Shown piece after piece: positions 5,093 to 35,031 of a DNA stretch of 64,000 nt. The stretch's first letter is position 1, and each line of letters begins with the position of its first letter. Both the position numbers and the translations under genes were made by a program. The notes beneath the pieces were generated by a model. That model did not search any database. It was not told where the DNA came from and was given only the letters and a program-made list of their open reading frames with translations. Source of the DNA: Terriglobia bacterium (lineage in GTDB: Bacteria; Acidobacteriota; Terriglobia; Acidiferrales; UBA7541); contig CAWBTO010000002.1 of assembly GCA_963791705.1 (NCBI GenBank), positions 85,885-149,884 of the forward strand, read 5' to 3'.

Positions 5093-6307
5093 ACTCGCAC
5101 CTTTCCGCTTCGGATGTCCCCCGGGGATTCACTTTTGCCGCCACGCACTGCGGCTTGAAGAGGTCGCGGCTCGATCTGGGCATTCTGATCAGCGAGACGC
5201 CCGCGGCGGCCGCCGCGGTCTTCACGACGAACCGCGTGGTGGCGGCGCCGGTGATCGCCTCGCGCGAACATTTGCGGAAGGCGCGGCACAAGATGCGCGG
5301 CGTGATCGTCAACTCCGGCAACGCGAACTGCTGCACCCGCGAGGACGGCTATCCCGCTTCGGTGGCCACCGCCAGCAAGCTGGCCGCGGAGATGGGAGGC
5401 CTGGACCGCACGCAGTTTCTGGTCTGTTCGACCGGGGTGATCGGCGCGCCGCTGCGCGTCGAGAAGATTCTGCGAGGCCGTTCCGGATTTGGTGGGCGCG
5501 CGCAGCGCGGATTCGGGCGCGTTCGAGGAATTCGCCCGCGCCATCATGACCACGGATACGCGCCCGAAGTGGGCCAAGGCGCAGTGCCGCATCGGCGGAA
5601 AACCGGTGCGGGTGCTTGGATGCGCCAAAGGCTCGGGGATGATTCATCCGAACATGGCCACGATGCTGGCGTTTCTGGCCACCGATGCCGCCATCTCGCC
5701 CGCGCTGCTTTCGCGCGCGCTGCGCGCGGCGGTGGGGCCGACGTTCAATTCCATCACCGTCGATGGCGACACCTCGACCAACGACACCGTGACGGTGCTG
5801 GCCAACGGCCAATCCGGCGCGCCGGCCATCGAGGGCGTGAAAAGCGCCGGCTACAAAAGTTTTTGCGCCGCGCTGCAAGAGGTCTGCCGCTCGCTGGCGC
5901 TGGCGATTGTCGAGGATGGCGAAGGCGCGCAGCGCGTGATTGAGATCGAAGTCCACGGGGCGCCTTCGGACCGCGCCGCCAGCCAGCTGGCCCGCACGGT
6001 GGCGAATTCGCCGCTGGTGAAGACCGCGTTTGCCGGCGCGGACCCCAACTGGGGACGCATCCTGGCGGCCGCGGGGCGTTCCGGAGTACACTTCGATCCG
6101 GCGCGCACCAACATCTCCATCGCGGGGATTCCCGTATGCCGTGGCGGCCGCGAGCACACCTTCGACGAAGCCGCCACGCACGAAAAGATGCTCGAGAAAT
6201 ACGTGACCGTCCGCCTCGATCTGCATTCCGGCCGCGGCTCGGCCCGCGTCTGGACCTGCGACTTCACGCAGGAATACATCCACATCAACGCCAGCTACCG
6301 GACCTAG
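5089..6307 (+). pseudogene. argJ: bifunctional ornithine acetyltransferase/N-acetylglutamate synthase ArgJ; frame interrupted by one extra base near nt 5473 (true frameshift or assembly error)
   Basis: Frame 1 gives MNSHLSASDVPRGFTFAATHCGLK...VIGAPLRVEKIL. Frame 2 continues EAVPDLVGARSADSGAFEEFARAIMTTDTRPK...HPNMATMLAFLATDA...INASYRT. The junction reads att ctg C gag gcc. Confidence 0.85.
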
Positions 6308-6576
6308 CGCGGCGGATCGAGTTCCGCTCGAAGGACAATTACCCTTCCGTGAAGATGTGTCTGAGCAAATCTCCGGACGGGCGCGCGTTCTTGCGGGAAC
6401 GACACGGTACGAACGGCAAGGTTGACTGCGGGGGCCAGTTGCAGCAAGATGCTCGTGAGCTGCTGGAGCGCGCGCTTCAGCCTCGAGTGGCCGGCGCATT
6501 GCTGACTGCCCGCGGCCGGGATCCTGCCTCTTCAGCCTCGCAGACGCGCCCTCATGCAAATGGGGGCGCAAGGAGC

Positions 6577-6966
6577 ATGACCGTGAAGAAACTGTACGTC
6601 GGTAATCTTTCGTTCAAGGCTACGGAAGAGCAGGTGCAGGCTTTGTTTACGGAAATCGGGTCACAGCCGGATTCTCTCACTCTGCTGCGCGATCGCTTTA
6701 CCGGGCAACCGCGCGGCTTCGGATTCGCGGAGTTCCACGACGATGCGGAAGCGGAAAAGGCGATTGCCGCTCTCAACGGCAAGGACTTTCTCGGCCGCGC
6801 CCTGGTGGTCAACGAAGCGCGGCCGCAGCGTGAAGGCGGTGGAGCGGGCGGTGGTGGCGGACGCGGAGGCCGGGGCGGGGGCGGTGGAGGCGGCGGACGC
6901 GGCGGCCATGGTGGCGGTGGCGGGCGCGGCGGGCGCGGCGATTACGGCGGCGGGCGCGATCGGTAA
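6577..6966 (+). CDS. RRM-type RNA-binding protein with Gly/Arg-rich C-terminal tail
   Basis: ATG 6577 follows AAGGAG (6570-6575). RNP motifs KLYVGNLSF and RGFGFAEF. The tail is GGGAGGGGGRGGRGGGGGGGGRGGHGGGGGRGGRGDYGGGRDR. Confidence 0.85.
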   Translation: MTVKKLYVGNLSFKATEEQVQALFTEIGSQPDSLTLLRDRFTGQPRGFGFAEFHDDAEAEKAIAALNGKDFLGRALVVNEARPQREGGGAGGGGGRGGRGGGGGGGGRGGHGGGGGRGGRGDYGGGRDR

Positions 6967-7087
6967 GCTCTCCTTCCTACTTCTCACCGTATTGTAACGG
7001 CGCAGAGCCTTGTTTGGCGGGGCTATGCGGGGTCATGCGCACGGCTGCAAAGAGCCGCAGGCGCGTGGGCGTGTGTGGGCTGCGCGT

Positions 7088-22684: not shown

Positions 22685-22894
22685 TGGAATTCCCCTGTCC
22701 GCCGAGCGTGCCCAGTCCCGCCCGCGCGCCCCTTCATTCTGATATAGGCGGATGCACCCGCCAAGCCGATTCTCCGGCCGTACTGCAGGATGGCAGGTTC
22801 GTCGGAACGTTCGTACCGGATACTCTTTCCTAACATCGCCTCGGCGATCTTTCCTGCATGGGGCCGTTCTCCCCTATTCTAAGTGAGTCGGCCC

Positions 22895-24628
22895 ATGTCT
22901 CAACGCCCCAATCCGGAACTGTCTCCGCCGCCCCCGAAGGGTGGGCGCGGCCCCACCGAGCGCCAGGACACGCTATTGCTGAGCGATGTTCCGGAGGCTA
23001 CGGCTCTGATGCAGGAGGGAGTTGTGCCGCCGGTCGTCAGCGCGCAGCTTAGCTCGGCGGCGCTGGAGGCCCTGGCCCAGCGTTACGACATCCTGGGCGA
23101 AGCGGGCAGCGGGAGCATGGGCAATGTGTACAAGGCCCGGGATCGCGAGACTGGCGAAACGGTAGCCTTGAAGCTGTTAAAGCCGGAAATCGCTTCCGAC
23201 CAGGCGATGATGGACCGGTTCAAGAACGAACTGTTGTTTGCGCGCAAGATCACGCACAAGAACGTCTGCCGGGTCTACGAGTTCAACCGCCTAGGCGGGA
23301 TCTCCTACACATCCATGGAGTTTGTCGAGGGCGAGAGCCTGCGCTCGGTGCTGAACCGTTTCGGGGGCCTGCCCTTGCGCAAGGGGATCGATCTGGTGCT
23401 GCAGGTGTGTTCGGGGCTGAAGGAAGCGCATGTCCAGGGAATCGTTCACCGGGACCTGAAGCCCGAGAACGTGATGATTGACGCACAGGGCAACGTGAAG
23501 ATCATGGATTTCGGCATCGCGCGGTCGATGGAGGCGCTCACGCGGATGACCGGCTCGATGGCCGGCACGCCGGCGTATATGGCTCCGGAGCAAGTCGCGG
23601 GCAAGCCCGTGGACTACCGCACCGATATCTACTCTTTGGGATTGATCATGTACGAAGTCTTCACGGGGAAACAGGCGTTTGCAGCGGACAACGCCGTGGC
23701 GGTGGCCTTGAAGCAGCTGCGCGAATCGCCGCCGCCGCCGCACGAACTCGAACCGAGCATTCCCGTGCCGGTCGAGCGGGTGATTTTGAAGTGTCTGGAG
23801 AAGGAGCCGCCCAAGCGTTTCCAATCCATCGGACAACTGGAAAGCGCGCTGCACGCTTCTCCGGCGGTGCCGGCGATTCGAACCACGGTCATGAGCGTCC
23901 CGGCGGACCCGTCGGTCGTGGTCCGGCCGCGCCCGCACTTGGAGTTGCCGCCAGCCGAGCCGGAAGAGCAGAAGAAGCGTGTCGCACCAGTGGTGTGGAT
24001 TTTGCTGGGGGCCTGTCTGGTGATGGGGTCGCTGGCGGGATGGCATTGGGCGCAGCGCGCGAAATTGTTTGACGGGGTAGCTCCGCCGGACCGCGTGTCC
24101 GCGCCGAAGCCGCCGGAATTTGCCTTCGAGGTTCCCGCCCCGCCACCGGCCACCGACGCAGCCCCCGCCGAGGATTCGCCGGCGCCCGCCGCGAATGCGG
24201 CCGCGGAGCCTGCGGAAAAGAGTTCGCCGGCGCCCGCCGGTGCGGGGAGCCGGCAGGAAACGGCGCCGGTGAAGAAACAACCCGCGGCAGCGTTGAAACC
24301 GGCATTGCCAGTAGTGACGCGGCCGCGCGCGGCGCGACCGTCGAGCGAGACGGCTTTGGCCGTTCCATCGCTGGCCGTGGACGACGCTCCGAGCTATCTG
24401 CGCGTGGGACGGTTCGAGTTCGAGGAGCGCGCGGATACAGCGGCGGAGAAAATCAAGGGGCTGGGTTTGCCGGCCGTCGTGGTGCCCCGGCGCAATCTGA
24501 AAGGCGGACGCTTCTGGGTGATCTTGACAGGACCGCTGGACCCCGACCGGGTGCAGAGCACGAAGGAGTGGCTGCAGACGCAAGGTTTCGAGGACGTCCA
24601 GCAAATGAAGCTTCCCACGGTCAATTAG
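22895..24628 (+). CDS. Ser/Thr protein kinase with TM helix, Pro/Ala-rich linker and SPOR-like C-terminal domain
   Basis: Hanks kinase motifs HRDLKPENVMID, DFGIARS and GTPAYMAPEQ. TM helix VVWILLGACLVMGSLAGWHW. C-terminus YLRVGRFEFEERADTAAEKIKGLGLPAVVVP...RFWVILTGP. GTG 22883 is an alternative start. Confidence 0.88.
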   Translation: MSQRPNPELSPPPPKGGRGPTERQDTLLLSDVPEATALMQEGVVPPVVSAQLSSAALEALAQRYDILGEAGSGSMGNVYKARDRETGETVALKLLKPEIASDQAMMDRFKNELLFARKITHKNVCRVYEFNRLGGISYTSMEFVEGESLRSVLNRFGGLPLRKGIDLVLQVCSGLKEAHVQGIVHRDLKPENVMIDAQGNVKIMDFGIARSMEALTRMTGSMAGTPAYMAPEQVAGKPVDYRTDIYSLGLIMYEVFTGKQAFAADNAVAVALKQLRESPPPPHELEPSIPVPVERVILKCLEKEPPKRFQSIGQLESALHASPAVPAIRTTVMSVPADPSVVVRPRPHLELPPAEPEEQKKRVAPVVWILLGACLVMGSLAGWHWAQRAKLFDGVAPPDRVSAPKPPEFAFEVPAPPPATDAAPAEDSPAPAANAAAEPAEKSSPAPAGAGSRQETAPVKKQPAAALKPALPVVTRPRAARPSSETALAVPSLAVDDAPSYLRVGRFEFEERADTAAEKIKGLGLPAVVVPRRNLKGGRFWVILTGPLDPDRVQSTKEWLQTQGFEDVQQMKLPTVN

Positions 24629-24699
24629 AATCCGGGTGCTACGCCGAATCCGTGATGGGGCGCGGATCGGGGCAGTCAGCGGCGGTTCGAGGTAAAAGC

Positions 24700-25518
24700 A
24701 TGGAGATGGAATTCGGAGCCCACAGCGACACCGGTTGCGTGCGCGGGAACAATGAGGACTCCTACGGCGTGGCGCCGGAGATGAGCCTTTTCGTTCTCTC
24801 GGACGGTATGGGCGGTCTGGCGGCCGGGGAAGTGGCGAGCCGCCTGGCGGTGGACACGGTGCTGGCGCATTGCCGCGAGTCGGAAGCAAACCCTTTGTTG
24901 CCGCTCACCGGGGGATTCCTGGCCGGGGTGTCGGGCACGGCGAACCGGCTGGCCAGCGGAGTTCGCCTAGCGAACGAAGTGGTGCACCGCACCGCGCAAC
25001 AAAGCGCGGCCGGCGCGTCGGGCGGCATGGGTGCGACGATCGTGGCGGTTCGTTTTTGGGACGGGCGCATGAGCTTGGTGCACGTGGGAGACAGCCGCGC
25101 CTACCGGCTGCGGGACGGCCAGTTCGAGCAGTTGACGCAGGACCATTCCTTTGTGGCCGAGCAGGTTCGCCGGGGACGCATGACCCAGCAGGAAGCCGAC
25201 GACAGCGCGTTGCACAACGTGCTGATCCGCGCCCTGGGCGTGGATGCCGAGGTGGATGTGGATGTGCGGGAAGACATGGTGACGGAGAGCGACACCGTGT
25301 TGCTGTGCTCCGACGGGCTCACGCGCGAGCTTTCGGACGCGCAAATCGCCGCCGTGCTGGGAGAAATCGAGGAGGCCGAAGAGGCCGCCGGCCGCCTGGT
25401 GGAGCTGGCCAAGCAGGCGGGTGGCGGAGACAACGTCACCGCCATCGTGGTGCGTTCGGCGCTCCGGCCGGCCGGGGCGCTGGCGCGGATCGGGAAATGG
25501 TTTCGGGAGTTTGCGTAG
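24700..25518 (+). CDS. PP2C-family Ser/Thr phosphatase
   Basis: GCVRGNNEDSY, LSDGMGG, CSDGL and GGDNVTAIVV motifs. Confidence 0.88.
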   Translation: MEMEFGAHSDTGCVRGNNEDSYGVAPEMSLFVLSDGMGGLAAGEVASRLAVDTVLAHCRESEANPLLPLTGGFLAGVSGTANRLASGVRLANEVVHRTAQQSAAGASGGMGATIVAVRFWDGRMSLVHVGDSRAYRLRDGQFEQLTQDHSFVAEQVRRGRMTQQEADDSALHNVLIRALGVDAEVDVDVREDMVTESDTVLLCSDGLTRELSDAQIAAVLGEIEEAEEAAGRLVELAKQAGGGDNVTAIVVRSALRPAGALARIGKWFREFA

Positions 25519-25568
25519 AGCGGGGCTTTTGGTAAGGGGCGAATTGGATTTCGTGGAGGAGGGCTGAC

Positions 25569-26300
25569 ATGCCGACGCTGGTTCTGAAATTCGGAAACTC
25601 GGTGCTCCAGGAAGTGGCTGTGGGATCGCGGGAGGTGAGCATCGGGCGCTCGCCGGACAACGGGCTGGTGATCGACAATCCGGCGGTGTCGCACTATCAC
25701 GCGCGCGTGTTCCACGAGGAAGACCGGCTGATGCTGGAGGATTTCGGCAGCCTGAACGGGACGTTCGTCAACGGGCAGCGTGTGAAAATGGTGACGCTGC
25801 AACCGGGCGACGCCGTGGCGATCGGGAAACACACGATCGAGGTGTCGGATTCCGGCCAGGACGTGCTGGCCACCAGTCATGGAGAAGCCAAACCGGCGGC
25901 GCCGAAAATCAACGAGACGGTAATGCTCGACACCAAGGCGCGCCGCGATTTTTTGCAGAAGGTGGCGGCCGTGGGCGAAAGCGCGCAGGTGGCTCCCGCG
26001 CGGCTGAAGGTGCCTTCGCTGGTGGTGCGCAAGGGCAAAGCCAGCCGGCGCGAGTACACCCTGAGCGACAAGCTCACGGTGATCGGAAAATCGGCGATGG
26101 CCTCGGTGAAGCTGACGGGATGGTTTGCGCCGAAGGTGGCGGCTCAGGTCAGCCGCCGGGACGACCAGACCTACTACATCAGCGCGGGAGACAAGGTGCC
26201 CAGCGTCAACAGCTGGCCCATCACGCAGCCGAAAAAACTTTCCCCGGGCGACATCATTACCGTCGCCGGCGTCGAACTGGAATTCGTTTACCGCGACTGA
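25569..26300 (+). CDS. protein with two FHA domains
   Basis: N-terminal FHA (SIGRSPDNGLVIDNPAVSHYHARV...SLNGTFVNG). The second, C-terminal FHA-like module is (LTVIGKSAMASVKL...YYISAGDKVPSVNSWPI). Confidence 0.82.
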   Translation: MPTLVLKFGNSVLQEVAVGSREVSIGRSPDNGLVIDNPAVSHYHARVFHEEDRLMLEDFGSLNGTFVNGQRVKMVTLQPGDAVAIGKHTIEVSDSGQDVLATSHGEAKPAAPKINETVMLDTKARRDFLQKVAAVGESAQVAPARLKVPSLVVRKGKASRREYTLSDKLTVIGKSAMASVKLTGWFAPKVAAQVSRRDDQTYYISAGDKVPSVNSWPITQPKKLSPGDIITVAGVELEFVYRD

Positions 26301-27479: not shown

Positions 27480-29311
<1,832 letters not shown>

Positions 29312-29603
29312 TTTGGTTGTGTGCGTTGAACTGCGGCCCAATCAGAAAGGGTTACCGTTGCGGTCCGGCAACCCCGGTCTCTTCTGGAAACGCGGTGGAG
29401 CAACAAACGCACTAGTAGTTTAGCACGGGCGCGTCGCGCCCGCCATCGCGCAGGGGGTGAAACCAGCCCTTGTGCGCGAAGCCAGGTTGCGTCCGTTGCG
29501 GGGAAGAGCGGAAAAGGCTTGGCGCGCTAGCGCACCCGGCGTATGGTTCATGGGGTTCGCGGGGACACTCGCGCGGCATTAGGCGGCGCCAAGGAGCGTG
29601 GCT

Positions 29604-32002: not shown

Positions 32003-32158
32003 CAGGGAAGGAGAGTTGCCTGGGCGAGCCCAGGTGGCCCCATGGAGAACCGGCACAAGAGCGGTCTGCGGCCCCGGCCGGACATCGGCCTGAGCGGGGT
32101 TGTGCTCGCTCCGCCGGCGGTCCGGCTCCCGGTTTCCGCGCCCAAGCGGATTTCCGTG

Positions 32159-32668
32159 ATGCAGGAACCGGTGCTGGTCCTGAACGCCACGTTCGAGCCC
32201 ATCAACGTCACGGCGGTGCGCCGCGCCCTGATCCTGATGCTGAAGGGTGTGGCCCAGGCCGAGGAAACCAACCACGCCGAGGTGCACTCGGCTTCGAAGT
32301 CGGTCCTGGTGCCGTCGGTGATCCGCCTGTTGAGCTACCGCCACATTCCCCAGCAGAGCCGGGCGCTTTCGCGCAAGAACATCCTGCTGCGCGACCGCAA
32401 CATGTGCCAGTTCTGCGGCCGGATTTTTCCCGCGTCGGAGCTGACGCTGGACCACGTGATGCCGCGTTCGCGGGGCGGCCGGTCGTCGTGGGAGAATCTG
32501 GTGGCGTGCTGCTACGCCTGCAACAACCGCAAGGGCGACCGCACCCCGGAAGAGGCCGGACTCAAGCTGCAGCGCCGGCCGCGTCCGTTCACCCTGCACA
32601 CCTCGCGGCAGCTGATGCGCCTGATCGGGCATCGCGACGAGAAGTGGCGCAAGTACCTGTTCTACTGA
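32159..32668 (+). CDS. HNH endonuclease
   Basis: [37 protein letters not shown] 32159 ([17 protein letters not shown]) chosen over the longer ORF. Confidence 0.8.
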
Positions 32669-32847
32669 CCGCGGCGGCCGGCCGGAAAATAGCGAAACAC
32701 CCTTTTCGGTCTTCCAGCGTCTAAGTAAGTAAGCAAGCACATCCAGGACACACCCCGGGAAGCGCGGCCGAAATTTCTGGCCCGCTTCCCTTTCCCTTTT
32801 TTGCGCCCCCGGCGGGCCGGAGGGCCCCCGCGCCTTCGGGGGCGGGT

Positions 32848-33669
32848 CTAGTGCAGCCGCGGCCGCAGTCCTTCGGCGAACGTCTCGATGCGGCTAAGCG
32901 GGACGATGGCAATGCCCTGGTCCTCGAACAGCCGCGCGACGAACTGGTGGCGGGGGTTGTCGCGCGACGGCTCCACCTCGGTGATGGCGGTGAACTCGGC
33001 GTGCGCGGTGCGCAGGCGGATGCGCTCGGCGGTGTAGGCGAGCACTTTGGCCTGGGCGGGATCGCGGCCCAGGGCGACGGCGTGCAGGTAGCCGCGCGTG
33101 CCGTTGTAGCGGCAGGCGTAGTCCAGGCGCAGGGGATCGCCCGGGTGGGTGAACTCGTCGACGCGGATGCTGCGTTCGAGATGGCGGAGAATGCGATGCC
33201 GCCGGAACACGTCGTTGAGGCGGGCGCGGATCCAGGCCCGCGTGTTTTCGACGATCCCGCCGCGGGCCCACGCCGGCGGCGCGACGTGGTCGCGGAACAG
33301 GCGGTCCATTTCGGCGTCGAAATCCCCGGCCAGCAGGGCCCTCTGCGGGCTGAATTGCAGGACGTTGGACAGCGTCTGGCCCAGCTTTTCCAGATAGGCG
33401 GCCACTTCGTTCTCGGGGGCGCGCAGCCGCGCGTCGAATTCGGCCGGCAAGGCGCGCAGCAGTTCCTCATCGGCGCCGGGGTGAAGCCGCCGCACGCGGG
33501 CGATTTCGCCGGGCTCTTCGACCAGGCGCAGGGCGCGGCGCGGCCGGGCCGGATTTCCGGAGCCGGGGATTTCCTCCAGCAGCACGCCGATGTTGACCCA
33601 CTCGTCGCGGACGAGGTTGGGGGTGTAACGCAGGACCCGGTAGCGGAGCGTCGTGTATGGTTCCGGCAT
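32848..33669 (-). CDS. DUF3037 domain-containing protein
   Basis: N-terminus LRYRVLRYTPNLVRDEWVNIGVLLEE matches my recollection of the DUF3037 signature. The ATG lies 3 nt after the stop of the upstream kinase gene. Confidence 0.7.
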   Translation of the reverse strand: MPEPYTTLRYRVLRYTPNLVRDEWVNIGVLLEEIPGSGNPARPRRALRLVEEPGEIARVRRLHPGADEELLRALPAEFDARLRAPENEVAAYLEKLGQTLSNVLQFSPQRALLAGDFDAEMDRLFRDHVAPPAWARGGIVENTRAWIRARLNDVFRRHRILRHLERSIRVDEFTHPGDPLRLDYACRYNGTRGYLHAVALGRDPAQAKVLAYTAERIRLRTAHAEFTAITEVEPSRDNPRHQFVARLFEDQGIAIVPLSRIETFAEGLRPRLH

Positions 33670-33672
33670 GGT

Positions 33673-34470
33673 TCACGTCCAGTGGGGAAAGGGTTGGGCC
33701 GACGACTTCCAGGCCGCGCGGATCAGTTCGCGGACCAGCTTGCGCCGCCGCAGGAGTTGTTCGAGCAACTGTTCCAGCGCGTCCATCTGGAAATCGTACC
33801 ACTCGGGGGGAATCTCGCTGGCGGCCTGTTCGAGCACGCTTGCGGTCATTCGTTCCTCCAGGCGCACGAGCCAGGGCTCAAACGACTCGATCCCGCGCAC
33901 CGATTCGTAGACGCGGTGGCGCGCGTAGAGCCCGCGCAGGGGCGCGTCGGGAAAATTCCATTCCCCGGCGTTGAAGCAGAAGCCATGGTCGATCAGCTGG
34001 GCCTGGTAGCGTGGCTCGCCCCGGGCGCGAAAGAAGATCGCCTGGCGGCCGTTGGTGTTGCAGGTCCATTTGTCGAAGACCAGCGCGCCGCAGAAATCGG
34101 CGAGGTTCACCACCTCCCGCAGCTGCTCGTCGGGAAGAAAATCGTAGGCCACGGTCTGCGCCGGCGAGCCCGGATAGCGCGAGCCGAACTGCTGTCCCGG
34201 CCGGCAGCGCGCCGTGTGCCGCCCGAGCTGCATCACCAGGTCTTCGGTGTGCTCGATCAAGCTGGCCTGCACCTCCACGACGGCGGCGGCCGGCGTGGGC
34301 AGTCCGAGGCGGGCCGCCAGGCGTGTTCCCAGCAATTCATTCACCAGAATGCGCGGGCCCTGCGGGTTGTTCTGGAATTTGACCACGTAGTAGCCCTCGT
34401 CCTCGCAACGCATCAGTTGCGACTGGGCTCCTCCGCGCATTCTCCGGATCTGCTCGATGGCCCGCGGCAT
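33673..34470 (-). CDS. HipA-like / PI3-PI4-like small kinase
   Basis: Ordered motifs RGGAQSQL, YVVKF, FDKWTCNTNGRQ (D-x4-N) and LIDHGFCF. 265 aa, with no HipA N-terminal domain. Confidence 0.68.
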   Translation of the reverse strand: MPRAIEQIRRMRGGAQSQLMRCEDEGYYVVKFQNNPQGPRILVNELLGTRLAARLGLPTPAAAVVEVQASLIEHTEDLVMQLGRHTARCRPGQQFGSRYPGSPAQTVAYDFLPDEQLREVVNLADFCGALVFDKWTCNTNGRQAIFFRARGEPRYQAQLIDHGFCFNAGEWNFPDAPLRGLYARHRVYESVRGIESFEPWLVRLEERMTASVLEQAASEIPPEWYDFQMDALEQLLEQLLRRRKLVRELIRAAWKSSAQPFPHWT

Positions 34471-34478
34471 TGGGCCGT

Positions 34479-34508
34479 ATGCTAGCTATCGAAAGGGGAT
34501 TACTGCAA
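34479..34508 (-). promoter_or_regulatory. candidate sigma70-type promoter (TTGCAG-N18-TAGCAT) for the kinase/DUF3037 operon, possibly giving a leaderless mRNA
   Basis: The hexamers were read on the minus strand. The -10 element ends 8 nt before ATG 34470, and no SD lies in between. Confidence 0.3.
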
Positions 34509-34707
34509 GGGGAACATTTCAAATCGGGAAATGGCCGCCGGGCCGCCCCGCGTGGCGCGAGGGCCCCAGGCGATGGCCCACCGCCCGAAAAACGACCGAA
34601 AAACAACGCCGGCCCGGAGATCCAAGCAGGAAAGCGCGCCGCCCCACCCGGGCGCCAAGCCGCCGCCAAGCCAGCCGCGCGCCCGTCACTCCGCATGCCG
34701 GGGTGCC

Positions 34708-35031
34708 TCAGCGCCTCTTTCGACGGCCGCCCTTTTTCGCGCGCGCCTTCTTGGCCTTGCGTTTCGGCCTGGCCTTGGCTTTTTTCTTCCGGGGAGCTGC
34801 CTTCTTGGGCTTCTTGGCCTTCTTGGCTTTTTTGGCCTTCCGTGCGGGCGCGGATTTGCGGCGAGCTGGCGCCGCCGGAGCAGGGGCTTCCTCCTCGGCG
34901 GGCTCTTCCTCGACGATCACCTCTTCGACTTCTTCTTCTACCAAATCCTGCCCCTGTTCCAGCCCTTCTTCTTCCTCTTCGTAGCGGGGCAATTCGTCGT
35001 CTTCCTCATCGTGCATCTTGGCGTAAAACAT
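34708..35031 (-). CDS. hypothetical highly charged protein: acidic N-terminal half, Lys/Arg/Ala-rich histone H1-like C-terminal half
   Basis: ATG 35031 lies 5 nt after GGAGGA. Translation MFYAKMHDEEDDELPRYEEEEEGLEQGQDLVEEEVEEVIVEEEPAEEE...ARKAKKAKKAKKPKKAAPRKKKAKARPKRKAKKARAKKGGRRKRR. Confidence 0.7.
   Translation of the reverse strand: MFYAKMHDEEDDELPRYEEEEEGLEQGQDLVEEEVEEVIVEEEPAEEEAPAPAAPARRKSAPARKAKKAKKAKKPKKAAPRKKKAKARPKRKAKKARAKKGGRRKRR

Follow-up and report, generated by a model that had tools for sequence, protein, structure and literature searches.

A stretch of 64,000 nucleotides from a Terriglobia bacterium (contig CAWBTO010000002.1 of assembly GCA_963791705.1, positions 85,885 to 149,884; the whole of this analysed stretch is called the window below) carries on its minus strand, between positions 32848 and 34470, two adjacent genes that encode a HipA-like kinase and a DUF3037 protein. 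By sequence, this pair is a member of PDC-M66 (DS-6/HipAD), a family of kinase-toxin/antitoxin anti-phage systems validated in 2025-2026 in homologues, and we assign a probability of about 0.7 to the reading that it is a vertically inherited HipA_2 kinase/DUF3037 module of this family working through the mechanism described below. For the window pair itself we demonstrated family membership, conserved linkage, purifying selection and a conserved promoter footprint. That the kinase acts as effector or toxin, that the DUF3037 protein neutralises it and that residue D139 is needed for defence has been shown in homologues only. The initial annotation, made from the DNA letters alone, had presented the pair as an uncharacterised two-gene module; since homologous pairs have a published function (DS-6/HipAD and the pair of Retron-Sda1; PMC12548924, PMC13092281), we dropped this description.

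The kinase gene (33673-34470, minus strand) starts with ATG, stops with TGA at 33673-33675 and encodes a HipA_2-family protein of 265 aa, with the motifs RGGAQSQL (aa 12-19), YVVKF (aa 27-31), FDKWTCNTNGRQ (aa 132-143) and LIDHGFCF (aa 159-166). The partner gene (32848-33669, minus strand), with its ATG at 33667-33669, encodes a DUF3037 protein of 273 aa in which LRYRVLRYTPNLVRDEWVNIGVLLEE starts at aa 8. The genes are joined by a TGA-ACC-ATG junction (33667-33675, minus strand) whose 3-nt spacer (ACC) was read directly from the sequence, and this reading confirmed the initial annotation in its two minus-strand open reading frames (ORFs) 3 nt apart and in all the motifs it quoted. To place the pair among its relatives, we used a scan of one genome per GTDB species, which yielded 426 genomes with a relative; counts out of 80 given below refer to the best 80 of these, whose labels are mostly Acidobacteriota, Terriglobia or "Acidiferrales" and of which the closest is a Terriglobia metagenome-assembled genome (MAG) at 93%. 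The kinase gene lies directly upstream of the DUF3037 gene in 80/80 relatives, which bears out the earlier view of one tightly linked unit, and a TGA-NNN-ATG junction was found again in at least 54 of them, an arrangement consistent with coupled translation of the two proteins. One subclade (loci L053, L055, L066, L070, L071, L076 and L080) has ~160-210 nt between the kinase stop codon and the DUF3037 homology; the insert that replaces the 3-nt junction there reads as an N-terminal extension of the partner made of repeats rich in Asn, Asp, Glu and Arg, such as MNDEWNDKESDERNEKGRDERNDEGNDQRK.

Both ORFs are real genes and not chance frames, because their G+C content at third codon positions is high (GC3 = 0.85 and 0.89, with neighbouring genes similar), their ratio of nonsynonymous to synonymous substitution rates (dN/dS) is low, their junction recurs and their homologues number in the thousands. 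The dN/dS of the pair, computed on ten closely related genome pairs, is 0.01-0.24, a range equal to that of the flanking genes for a Cys/Met-metabolism enzyme and an SLT/LysM lytic transglycosylase, so that the pair is under purifying selection as strong as that on its neighbours. For each protein, the 120 best homologues are full-length proteins encoded in Acidobacteriota MAGs (68-93% identity for the partner, 73-85% for the kinase), and the kinase is 265 aa long in most of its 120 matches. Since the G+C content of the pair (68.2%) resembles that of the window (65.1%), composition gives no sign of recent acquisition, as had been noted from the letters alone.

Profile searches placed both proteins in families. 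The kinase matched Pfam HipA_2 (PF20613) with an E-value of 8.3e-15 (55.1 bits, cut-off 27) and the partner matched Pfam DUF3037 (PF11236) over aa 10-129 with an E-value of 3.8e-13 (50.1 bits, cut-off 22.6), which upholds the recognition of a HipA-like kinase and a DUF3037 protein by eye; the expectation of PF11236 for the second ORF was borne out in full and that of a HipA-like profile for the first through HipA_2, but HipA_C itself scored 17.4 bits, below its cut-off of 30.5, and covered aa 14-69 only. NCBIfam gave no match to either protein. With PADLOC profiles the kinase matched PDC-M66A (PDLC04766, E-value 2.4e-11) and the partner PDC-M66B (PDLC04767, E-value 4.7e-5, aa 7-131); these profiles stand for the two components of a single candidate system, and neither protein matched any other PADLOC family. 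The proteins of DS-6, taken from the supplement of PMC13092281 (DS-6A, WP_000389051.1; DS-6B, WP_000210934.1), match the same two profiles at 6e-15 and 3.8e-16 respectively. Aligned with hhalign, the kinase profile of the window clade matched DS-6A with 98.2% probability (E-value 5e-14, 33% identity over 199 columns), and the DUF3037 domain of the partner (aa 5-135) matched DS-6B with 98.4% probability. Searches of PDB sequences with single sequences and with profiles found nothing significant for the proteins, and a more diverse profile returned HipA and HipT matches that were all below threshold (E-values 0.7-1.7). Membership in the PDC-M66/DS-6 family rests, at the level of sequence, on three of its defining features, namely the short HipA_2-type kinase, the N-terminal DUF3037 domain and the order of the two closely spaced genes; the Asp corresponding to DS-6A D139 is not conserved in the pair.

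What the homologous pairs do has been reported from two sources. The operon of Retron-Sda1 contains a HipA-like kinase/DUF3037 pair that PADLOC labels PDC-M66 and that protects E. coli from phage Bas51 independently of the retron reverse transcriptase (RT) and non-coding RNA (ncRNA); deletion of its kinase abolishes defence, and deletion of its DUF3037 gene makes the construct toxic (PMC12548924). DS-6 of E. coli, renamed HipAD, consists of a HipA-related kinase and a DUF3037(+DUF1829) protein and protects against phage, a protection that is lost in the kinase mutant D139A; AlphaFold3 predicts an A2B2 complex for it (ipTM 0.76-0.79), and the C-terminal domain of DS-6B is assigned to DUF1829 by HHpred with a probability of 0.78 in the authors' table (PMC13092281). 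HipAD is described there as also found independently by Brenes & Laub 2025, in the E. coli prophage study of the Laub lab. The name "HipAD" was found in the full-text literature in the DefensePredictor paper only, and neither HipA nor PDC-M systems are named in the main text of the PDC preprint by Payne et al. 2024. These experiments on homologous pairs agree with the toxin-antitoxin or defence logic that had been proposed for the window pair from its layout.

We then inspected the genomic neighborhood of the pair. The same SLT/LysM lytic transglycosylase gene lies upstream of it in 68/80 relatives, and the complete order SLT/LysM gene, small acidic/basic ORF, kinase and DUF3037 gene holds in the same number; a Cys/Met-metabolism gene is found near the pair in 50/80. 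Compared with two long contigs, the window kinase is 77% and its partner 77-79% identical, next to 81-82% for the Cys/Met enzyme and 66-68% for the SLT protein. Two distant loci (L087 and L085), in which the partner is down to 36% identity, keep the order of SLT-like gene, small ORF, kinase and DUF3037 gene, and their divergence tracks that of the neighbours (43-46% identity for SLT, 68% for EF-G and 52-54% for the kinase). The 30-kb surroundings of the pair in the window encode housekeeping functions only, comprising on the downstream side UDP-glucose dehydrogenase, a Hanks kinase/PP2C/FHA trio, BipA, a CAAX protease, DksA and ComF, and on the upstream side EF-G, a TP_methylase-family protein, S20, LptE, a semialdehyde dehydrogenase-family protein, a CDP-alcohol phosphatidyltransferase and Psd. 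As judged from gene order and identity, the pair is inherited vertically in a stable housekeeping block throughout an order-level clade of Acidobacteriota (Terriglobia, "Acidiferrales"-type MAGs), in hundreds of species, and is not part of a defence island; of the neighborhood survey that had been proposed, the co-localisation of DUF3037 and kinase genes was found and the defence island was not. Scanning the window for Rfam families and tRNA genes gave no match, so it contains no retron ncRNA and no integration-site tRNA.

Two small genes flank the pair. The ORF between the SLT/LysM gene and the kinase gene (34708-35031, minus strand) encodes 107 aa without a Pfam family, with a strongly acidic N-terminal half and a basic tail rich in Lys, Ala and Pro (MFYAKMHDEEDDELP...KKAKKAKK...RRKRR); proteins of the same kind lie at the same position in L087 (4401-4790) and L085 (3595-4020). 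Directly upstream of the window kinase there is thus a 237-nt intergenic region followed by this small acidic/basic ORF, which has no helix-turn-helix (HTH) match. On the other side, a convergent gene (32042-32668, plus strand) encodes a 208-aa HNH protein (HNH_5/HNH) that is 80-97% conserved; its HNH region resembles IscB and Cas9, far below the family cut-offs, and a hairpin with a T-run downstream of the gene (32757-32802, plus strand) looks like an intrinsic terminator. The initial annotation had cited this convergent HNH gene in favour of toxin-antitoxin or abortive-infection logic, but because it is kept in 12/80 relatives only and travels with ComF and DksA, we regard it as an incidental neighbor.

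Elsewhere, the wider family is mobile, unlike the window pair. A conjugative plasmid of P. syringae (NZ_LT963406; L003, 25467-27019) carries a HipA family kinase/DUF3037 pair whose genes overlap by 4 nt, with two IS91 transposases on one side and a RelE/ParE toxin gene nearby. Among 21 IMG/VR loci found with the kinase profile, 19 have a DUF3037 gene downstream of the kinase. The pair is located between the genes for the terminase large subunit and the portal protein in two phage contigs (L091, 4001-5626; L100, 3992-5700), the same layout occurs in a metagenome contig (L089, 5214-6807), and further phage contigs with a HipA_2/DUF3037 pair are present among L092-L110. The phage-borne kinases are 52-58% identical to the window kinase and their partners only ~22-33% identical to the window partner, so that in phages the partner has been changing far more quickly than the kinase. 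A tblastn search with the partner found no match among GenBank phages and a single match among plasmids.

To characterize the promoter, we aligned 260 nt upstream of the kinase gene from 75 genomes. The intergenic region was unalignable except for a sharp footprint near the kinase start, which consists of three parts on the minus strand. The first is an A/T-rich block, TTTCCCAATTTGAAATGTTT (34512-34532), at positions -61 to -42 from the ATG and upstream of the -35 box, in which single positions are kept in 44-73 of the 75 genomes. In the window this block contains a perfect inverted repeat, ATTTC-N7-GAAAT (34516-34532), which is one of 2 matches only in the window and taken alone is not above chance; the block as a whole is a candidate UP element or operator on the strength of its conservation. 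The second part is a -35-like hexamer, TTGCAG (34503-34508), conserved among relatives: CTTGC at this position is near-invariant, and a TTGNNN lies 17-18 nt upstream of TAGCAT in 63/75 genomes. The third is the -10-like hexamer TAGCAT (34479-34484), which lies within GCTAGCATA, is separated from TTGCAG by an 18-nt spacer and ends 8 nt before the kinase ATG in the window; it is present in 73/75 genomes, with a distance to the start codon of 9 nt in 55 of them and of 8 nt in 18, and GCTAGCATA is essentially invariant.

No Shine-Dalgarno sequence was found between TAGCAT and the kinase ATG of the window, and the conserved position of TAGCAT supports a leaderless mRNA or one with a leader of 1-3 nt. 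The proposal of a leaderless transcript from TTGCAG-N18-TAGCAT, made from the window alone, has thereby gained strong comparative backing. The N-terminal ten residues of the kinase are conserved, hence we take the upstream ATG as its true start. A generic sigma-70 scan did not call the kinase promoter, because 8 of its 12 positions match and the threshold is 9; the support for it is therefore phylogenetic and not consensus-based. The invariance of all six -10 bases together with a palindromic GCTAGC hints at an overlapping operator. Sigma-54 was considered for the invariant GC-containing box and rejected, as the GG element that it needs is missing at the appropriate distance. At the other end of the unit, a G+C-rich hairpin (GCCCCCG-AAGGCG-CGGGGGC; 32824-32843, minus strand) lies 4 nt past the partner stop codon without a U-tract; the terminator scan did not call it, and it possibly marks the transcript end or stabilises the transcript in the convergent intergenic region.

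Combined with the published genetics, these data lead to the following working model. The conserved promoter would give rise to a leaderless bicistronic mRNA, from which ribosomes would first make the kinase-like protein and then, re-initiating 3 nt further on in a coupled manner, the DUF3037 protein. The N-terminal DUF3037 domain would then bind and neutralise the kinase, by analogy with homologues in which deletion of the partner is toxic and AlphaFold3 predicts a complex, and the C-terminal PD-(D/E)xK-like domain probably contacts nucleic acid, either in autoregulation at the promoter block or in sensing. Loss or displacement of the partner would let the kinase phosphorylate an essential target and thereby arrest growth; by analogy with HipA and HipT, this target could be an aminoacyl-tRNA synthetase.

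Several results weigh against this model. Asn140 of the window kinase occupies the position of an Asp that is essential in DS-6A, and in a weak alignment with HipA (probability 30%) the same Asn stands opposite the catalytic base D309, with HipA N314 falling in a gap. The AlphaFold2 (AF2) model of the kinase, with a mean predicted local distance difference test (pLDDT) score of 51, was too poor to confirm the fold. The PDC-M66B match of the partner is weak and limited to its N-terminal domain, and an hhalign comparison of its C-terminal half with those of DS-6B and the plasmid homologue gave probabilities of 0.2-2%. Lastly, no defence or mobile genes neighbor the pair within its 30-kb surroundings, and its core-like synteny and housekeeping-level conservation are atypical of defence systems.

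The genomic results feed the strongest of the alternatives, in which the same pair has ceased to act against phages in this lineage and is a domesticated regulator, i.e. a chromosomal switch for growth, stress or persistence that may be connected with the neighbouring cell-wall lytic transglycosylase and with the small acidic/basic protein. We consider this a serious possibility, though well short of even odds, and it overlaps with the preferred reading since the mechanism of the pair would be the same. It would account for a syntenic position held in 68/80 genomes and kept where the partner has fallen to 36% identity, for identities and dN/dS values comparable to those of the Cys/Met enzyme and better than those of SLT, for the housekeeping-only surroundings and for a promoter that is invariant across species. 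The dual-specificity phosphatase (DSPc) gene located directly upstream of the HipA_2/DUF3037 pair in the distant locus L085 (4464-4982) also points this way; the phosphatase may be there specifically to remove the mark set by the kinase. Against it, relatives with 52-58% identical kinases occur in phage contigs, where they are flanked by the genes for terminase and portal, defence has been validated for homologues that are more remote, and fixation in the chromosome is compatible with defence. On balance, the core-like behaviour favours some housekeeping value for the pair, and the paralogues found in phages leave room for a role in defence or conflict.

A second alternative concerns the chemistry of the kinase. 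We aligned it with DS-6A using hhalign and MAFFT, and both paired D139 in VFDKWILNAD139RT of DS-6A with Asn140 in VFDKWTCNTN140GRQ of the window kinase, whose catalytic loop is 7 residues shorter than those of DS-6A and the plasmid homologue. A richer profile aligned with the core of E. coli HipA collinearly but weakly (the alignment of 30% probability mentioned above, E-value 5.5e-4), pairing the P-loop with HipA 150-157, Lys31 with K181 and Asp161 with D332. The P-loop (R12-G-G-A-Q16), Lys31 and Asp161 are conserved in the kinase; in 77/77 genomes of the clade Asn140 is fixed, and likewise RGGAQ and the Lys. Among relatives with the short loop, the site of Asn140 is Asp in L085, L087 and 5/20 phage loci and Asn in the rest (15/20 phage loci). 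D133 and N138, which form a D-x4-N motif, are invariant across the family. The initial annotation had read this motif as the catalytic loop; it is Asn140 that aligns to the catalytic Asp, and D133-x4-N138 most likely corresponds, going by the HipA_C consensus, to the helix and "N-x-D" lead-in ("F-[ND]-x-h-h-x-N") before the catalytic Asp. A Foldseek search with the poor kinase model returned noise only.

Canonical phosphotransfer is not assured, because Asn140 replaces the Asp and no counterpart of N314 is seen. The sequences leave two readings for the subfamily, which would either phosphorylate through a non-canonical arrangement or be an attenuated kinase or pseudokinase. If the protein were a pseudokinase or a non-canonical enzyme, it would serve as an ATP-binding scaffold or switch or catalyse another reaction, and "kinase toxin" would be the wrong label for this subfamily. 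We hold this to be rather unlikely, a little more so than the domesticated regulator. The fixed N140 speaks for it, aligned as it is to a DS-6A residue whose mutation (D139A) is defence-dead and to HipA D309, as do the shortened loop and the alternation of Asp and Asn at the site among short-loop relatives, which is not expected of an indispensable catalytic base. On the other side, the RGGAQ P-loop, Lys31 and Asp161 are essentially invariant, as for an ATP-using enzyme; the family-wide invariant D133 and N138 could substitute for the missing Asp; and the alignment to HipA is weak, at 30% probability.

The third alternative requires a closer look at the partner. Its AF2 model has a mean pLDDT of 84 over the whole protein and shows two domains separated by a low-confidence linker (133-140). 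The first, the DUF3037 domain (aa 1-130; 33280-33669, minus strand), is supported by Pfam, PADLOC and hhalign, is the portion common to the validated antitoxins and by analogy with these is the presumed kinase-binding module. The second (aa 139-273, which with the stop codon spans 32848-33255, minus strand) has a PD-(D/E)xK-like topology in the model, with elements in the order alpha-beta-beta-beta-alpha-beta (H139-157, E165-169, E181-188, E191-198, H205-220, E224-230). Foldseek against the PDB returned Can2/Cdn1/Card1, type II restriction enzymes, XPF/Mus81, XisH and AF1548, with E-values from 3.5e-4 (best) to 0.1 and identities of 8-16%; against viral models it returned a full-length match to A0A516KTX2 (TM 0.61, E-value 7e-11), a DUF1828 protein and many nucleases. 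The common denominator of these structural matches, as predicted models go, is the PD-(D/E)xK fold, which we placed in the C-terminal half by topology because Foldseek gave no aligned query range. No HipA, HipS or HipT structure appeared among the Foldseek matches, and the idea of DUF3037 as a HipS-like mimic of the HipA N-subdomain was set aside.

We aligned 34 homologues, the most distant of them at 27% identity, together with the plasmid homologue (19%). Conservation of D178 and D183 reaches at least 90% among the homologues, whereas both are missing from DS-6B-type proteins, including the plasmid homologue, and no canonical (D/E)xK was found in the third strand of the C-terminal domain in this alignment. 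Neither DUF1829 nor any second domain in common came up when 34 diverse DUF3037 proteins were searched against Pfam at E-values as high as 10; intermediate full-length homologues (~30% identity) carry the PDC-M66B match on to profile position ~196. For the C-terminal domain we favour, from the model, a nuclease-fold module for which binding is more likely than cutting. Reversed roles, with the DUF3037 protein as a nuclease effector and the kinase as its regulator or sensor, would draw on the consistent return of PD-(D/E)xK nucleases by Foldseek and on the conservation of D178 and D183 in the 34 diverse homologues, but we judge them improbable: the (D/E)xK triad is missing, the two Asp residues are absent from DS-6B and the plasmid homologue, the Foldseek E-values are modest (3.5e-4 at best), and the Retron-Sda1 genetics are opposite to the prediction, as that system turns toxic without DUF3037 and no longer defends without the kinase. 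That the ORFs are chance frames or a decaying remnant, for which one could cite the ~5/80 related genomes with a split kinase frame beside an intact partner (maybe assembly errors), we practically dismiss given a dN/dS far below 1, conserved length, thousands of homologues and profile matches for both proteins. In these loci (L010, L024, L055, L066 and L068, ~5870-6995) the kinase frame is recovered in 2-3 tblastn pieces and the DUF3037 gene is intact, which could reflect toxin decay with the antitoxin kept or indel errors in MAG assembly.

Several elements of these alternatives can be combined with the PDC-M66 assignment. In this tentative synthesis, to which we give odds clearly against, a HipAD-type module that is fixed and vertically inherited in the acidobacterial clade, and more loosely among deeper relatives, that evolves as slowly as housekeeping genes and that has an invariant leaderless promoter and an Asn-site "kinase", would have taken on a new role as physiological switch or non-canonical enzyme. 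Phages with probably the same host range would carry their paralogous pairs, placed between terminase and portal, either to disturb the host's module or as a weapon against competing phages. What is already known here is the kinase/DUF3037 pair type, published in 2025-2026; what is distinct is the evolutionary setting and the active-site substitution. Mobility is thus not general in the HipAD family: in the soil phylum Acidobacteriota, which has been little studied and is hard to culture, it behaves like a core gene pair, which bears on the debate over whether chromosomal kinases of toxin-antitoxin type serve in defence or in physiological regulation. The fixed Asp-to-Asn change at a residue essential in DS-6A offers a sharp and cheap test of phosphate transfer in this subfamily, and the promoter block and the PD-(D/E)xK-like domain provide handles on autoregulation or nucleic-acid sensing by DUF3037 proteins.

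Two further observations were made in the wider window. BipA/TypA appears to be divided between two ORFs with a 4-nt overlap, one for the GTPase and domain 2 (27965-29341, minus strand, 458 aa) and one for BipA_C (27480-27968, minus strand, 162 aa), which a frameshift or a sequencing error could explain, as could a genuine division of the gene. The Hanks-type Ser/Thr kinase (581 aa), PP2C phosphatase and FHA-domain protein (22883-26300, plus strand) lie ~7 kb from the pair and are a phospho-signalling module separate from it.

We finally compared the pair with known systems. The C-terminal domain of the partner resembles PD-(D/E)xK nucleases at the level of the fold and lacks their canonical D...(D/E)xK motif. 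With HipBA the window pair shares, by analogy, toxin-antitoxin logic and a remote homology of the kinase core, seen in the 30% alignment in the P-loop (VAGAQEK in HipA, RGGAQS in the window), the Lys (Lys181/Lys31) and the Asp (Asp332/Asp161). It differs in that its kinase has 265 aa against 440 aa for HipA and is without the ~100-aa N-terminal subdomain (no domain match), that no HipB HTH antitoxin is adjacent, that the toxin gene precedes its partner, the reverse of the HipBA order, and that HipA_C stays below cut-off, with Asn for the catalytic Asp309 and no equivalent of Asn314 seen. By sequence the pair is not a canonical HipBA module, and the absence of an N-terminal subdomain and of HipB had been pointed out correctly in the initial annotation.

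The short Hip kinases of Gerdes et al. 2021 (HipBST; hipIN, hipMP, hipJ) are core-only kinases without N-subdomain 1, and several of their modules have a downstream two-domain antitoxin that combines a neutralising and a nucleic-acid-related domain, e.g. HIRAN or resolvase-like (PMC8262856). The window pair is similar in its core-only kinase and downstream non-HTH two-domain partner; DUF3037 partners, however, are absent from the 2021 classification, as judged from a full-text search for DUF3037 that did not return this paper, and the classification kept only kinases with all four canonical motifs (PMC8262856). Closer still is the pair of Retron-Sda1, which is built from the same two domain families and carries the same PDC-M66 label (PMC12548924). 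That pair adjoins a type III-A1 retron RT/ncRNA, whereas neither a retron nor an RT nor an Rfam RNA is present in the window. For the DUF3037 protein of the Retron-Sda1 pair, the C-terminus is said to resemble a retron-associated protein, described as a DNA-binding protein in the text and as a PRTase effector in a legend (PMC12548924).

DS-6/HipAD provides the comparison on which the preferred reading is built. The setting is different, as the window pair belongs to a vertically inherited housekeeping block and DS-6 is described as having been found independently in an E. coli prophage study. In DS-6A the essential Asp139 takes the place of Asn140 in the window kinase, whose loop is 7 residues shorter, and the C-terminal domains of DS-6B and the window partner cannot be aligned by sequence. 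The genes of DS-6 and of the P. syringae plasmid pair overlap by 4 nt, compared with the 3-nt spacer of the window, and the gene order is the same. The overall architecture is shared: a short HipA_2-type kinase comes first and a DUF3037 protein of ~270 aa second, on one strand and tightly joined.

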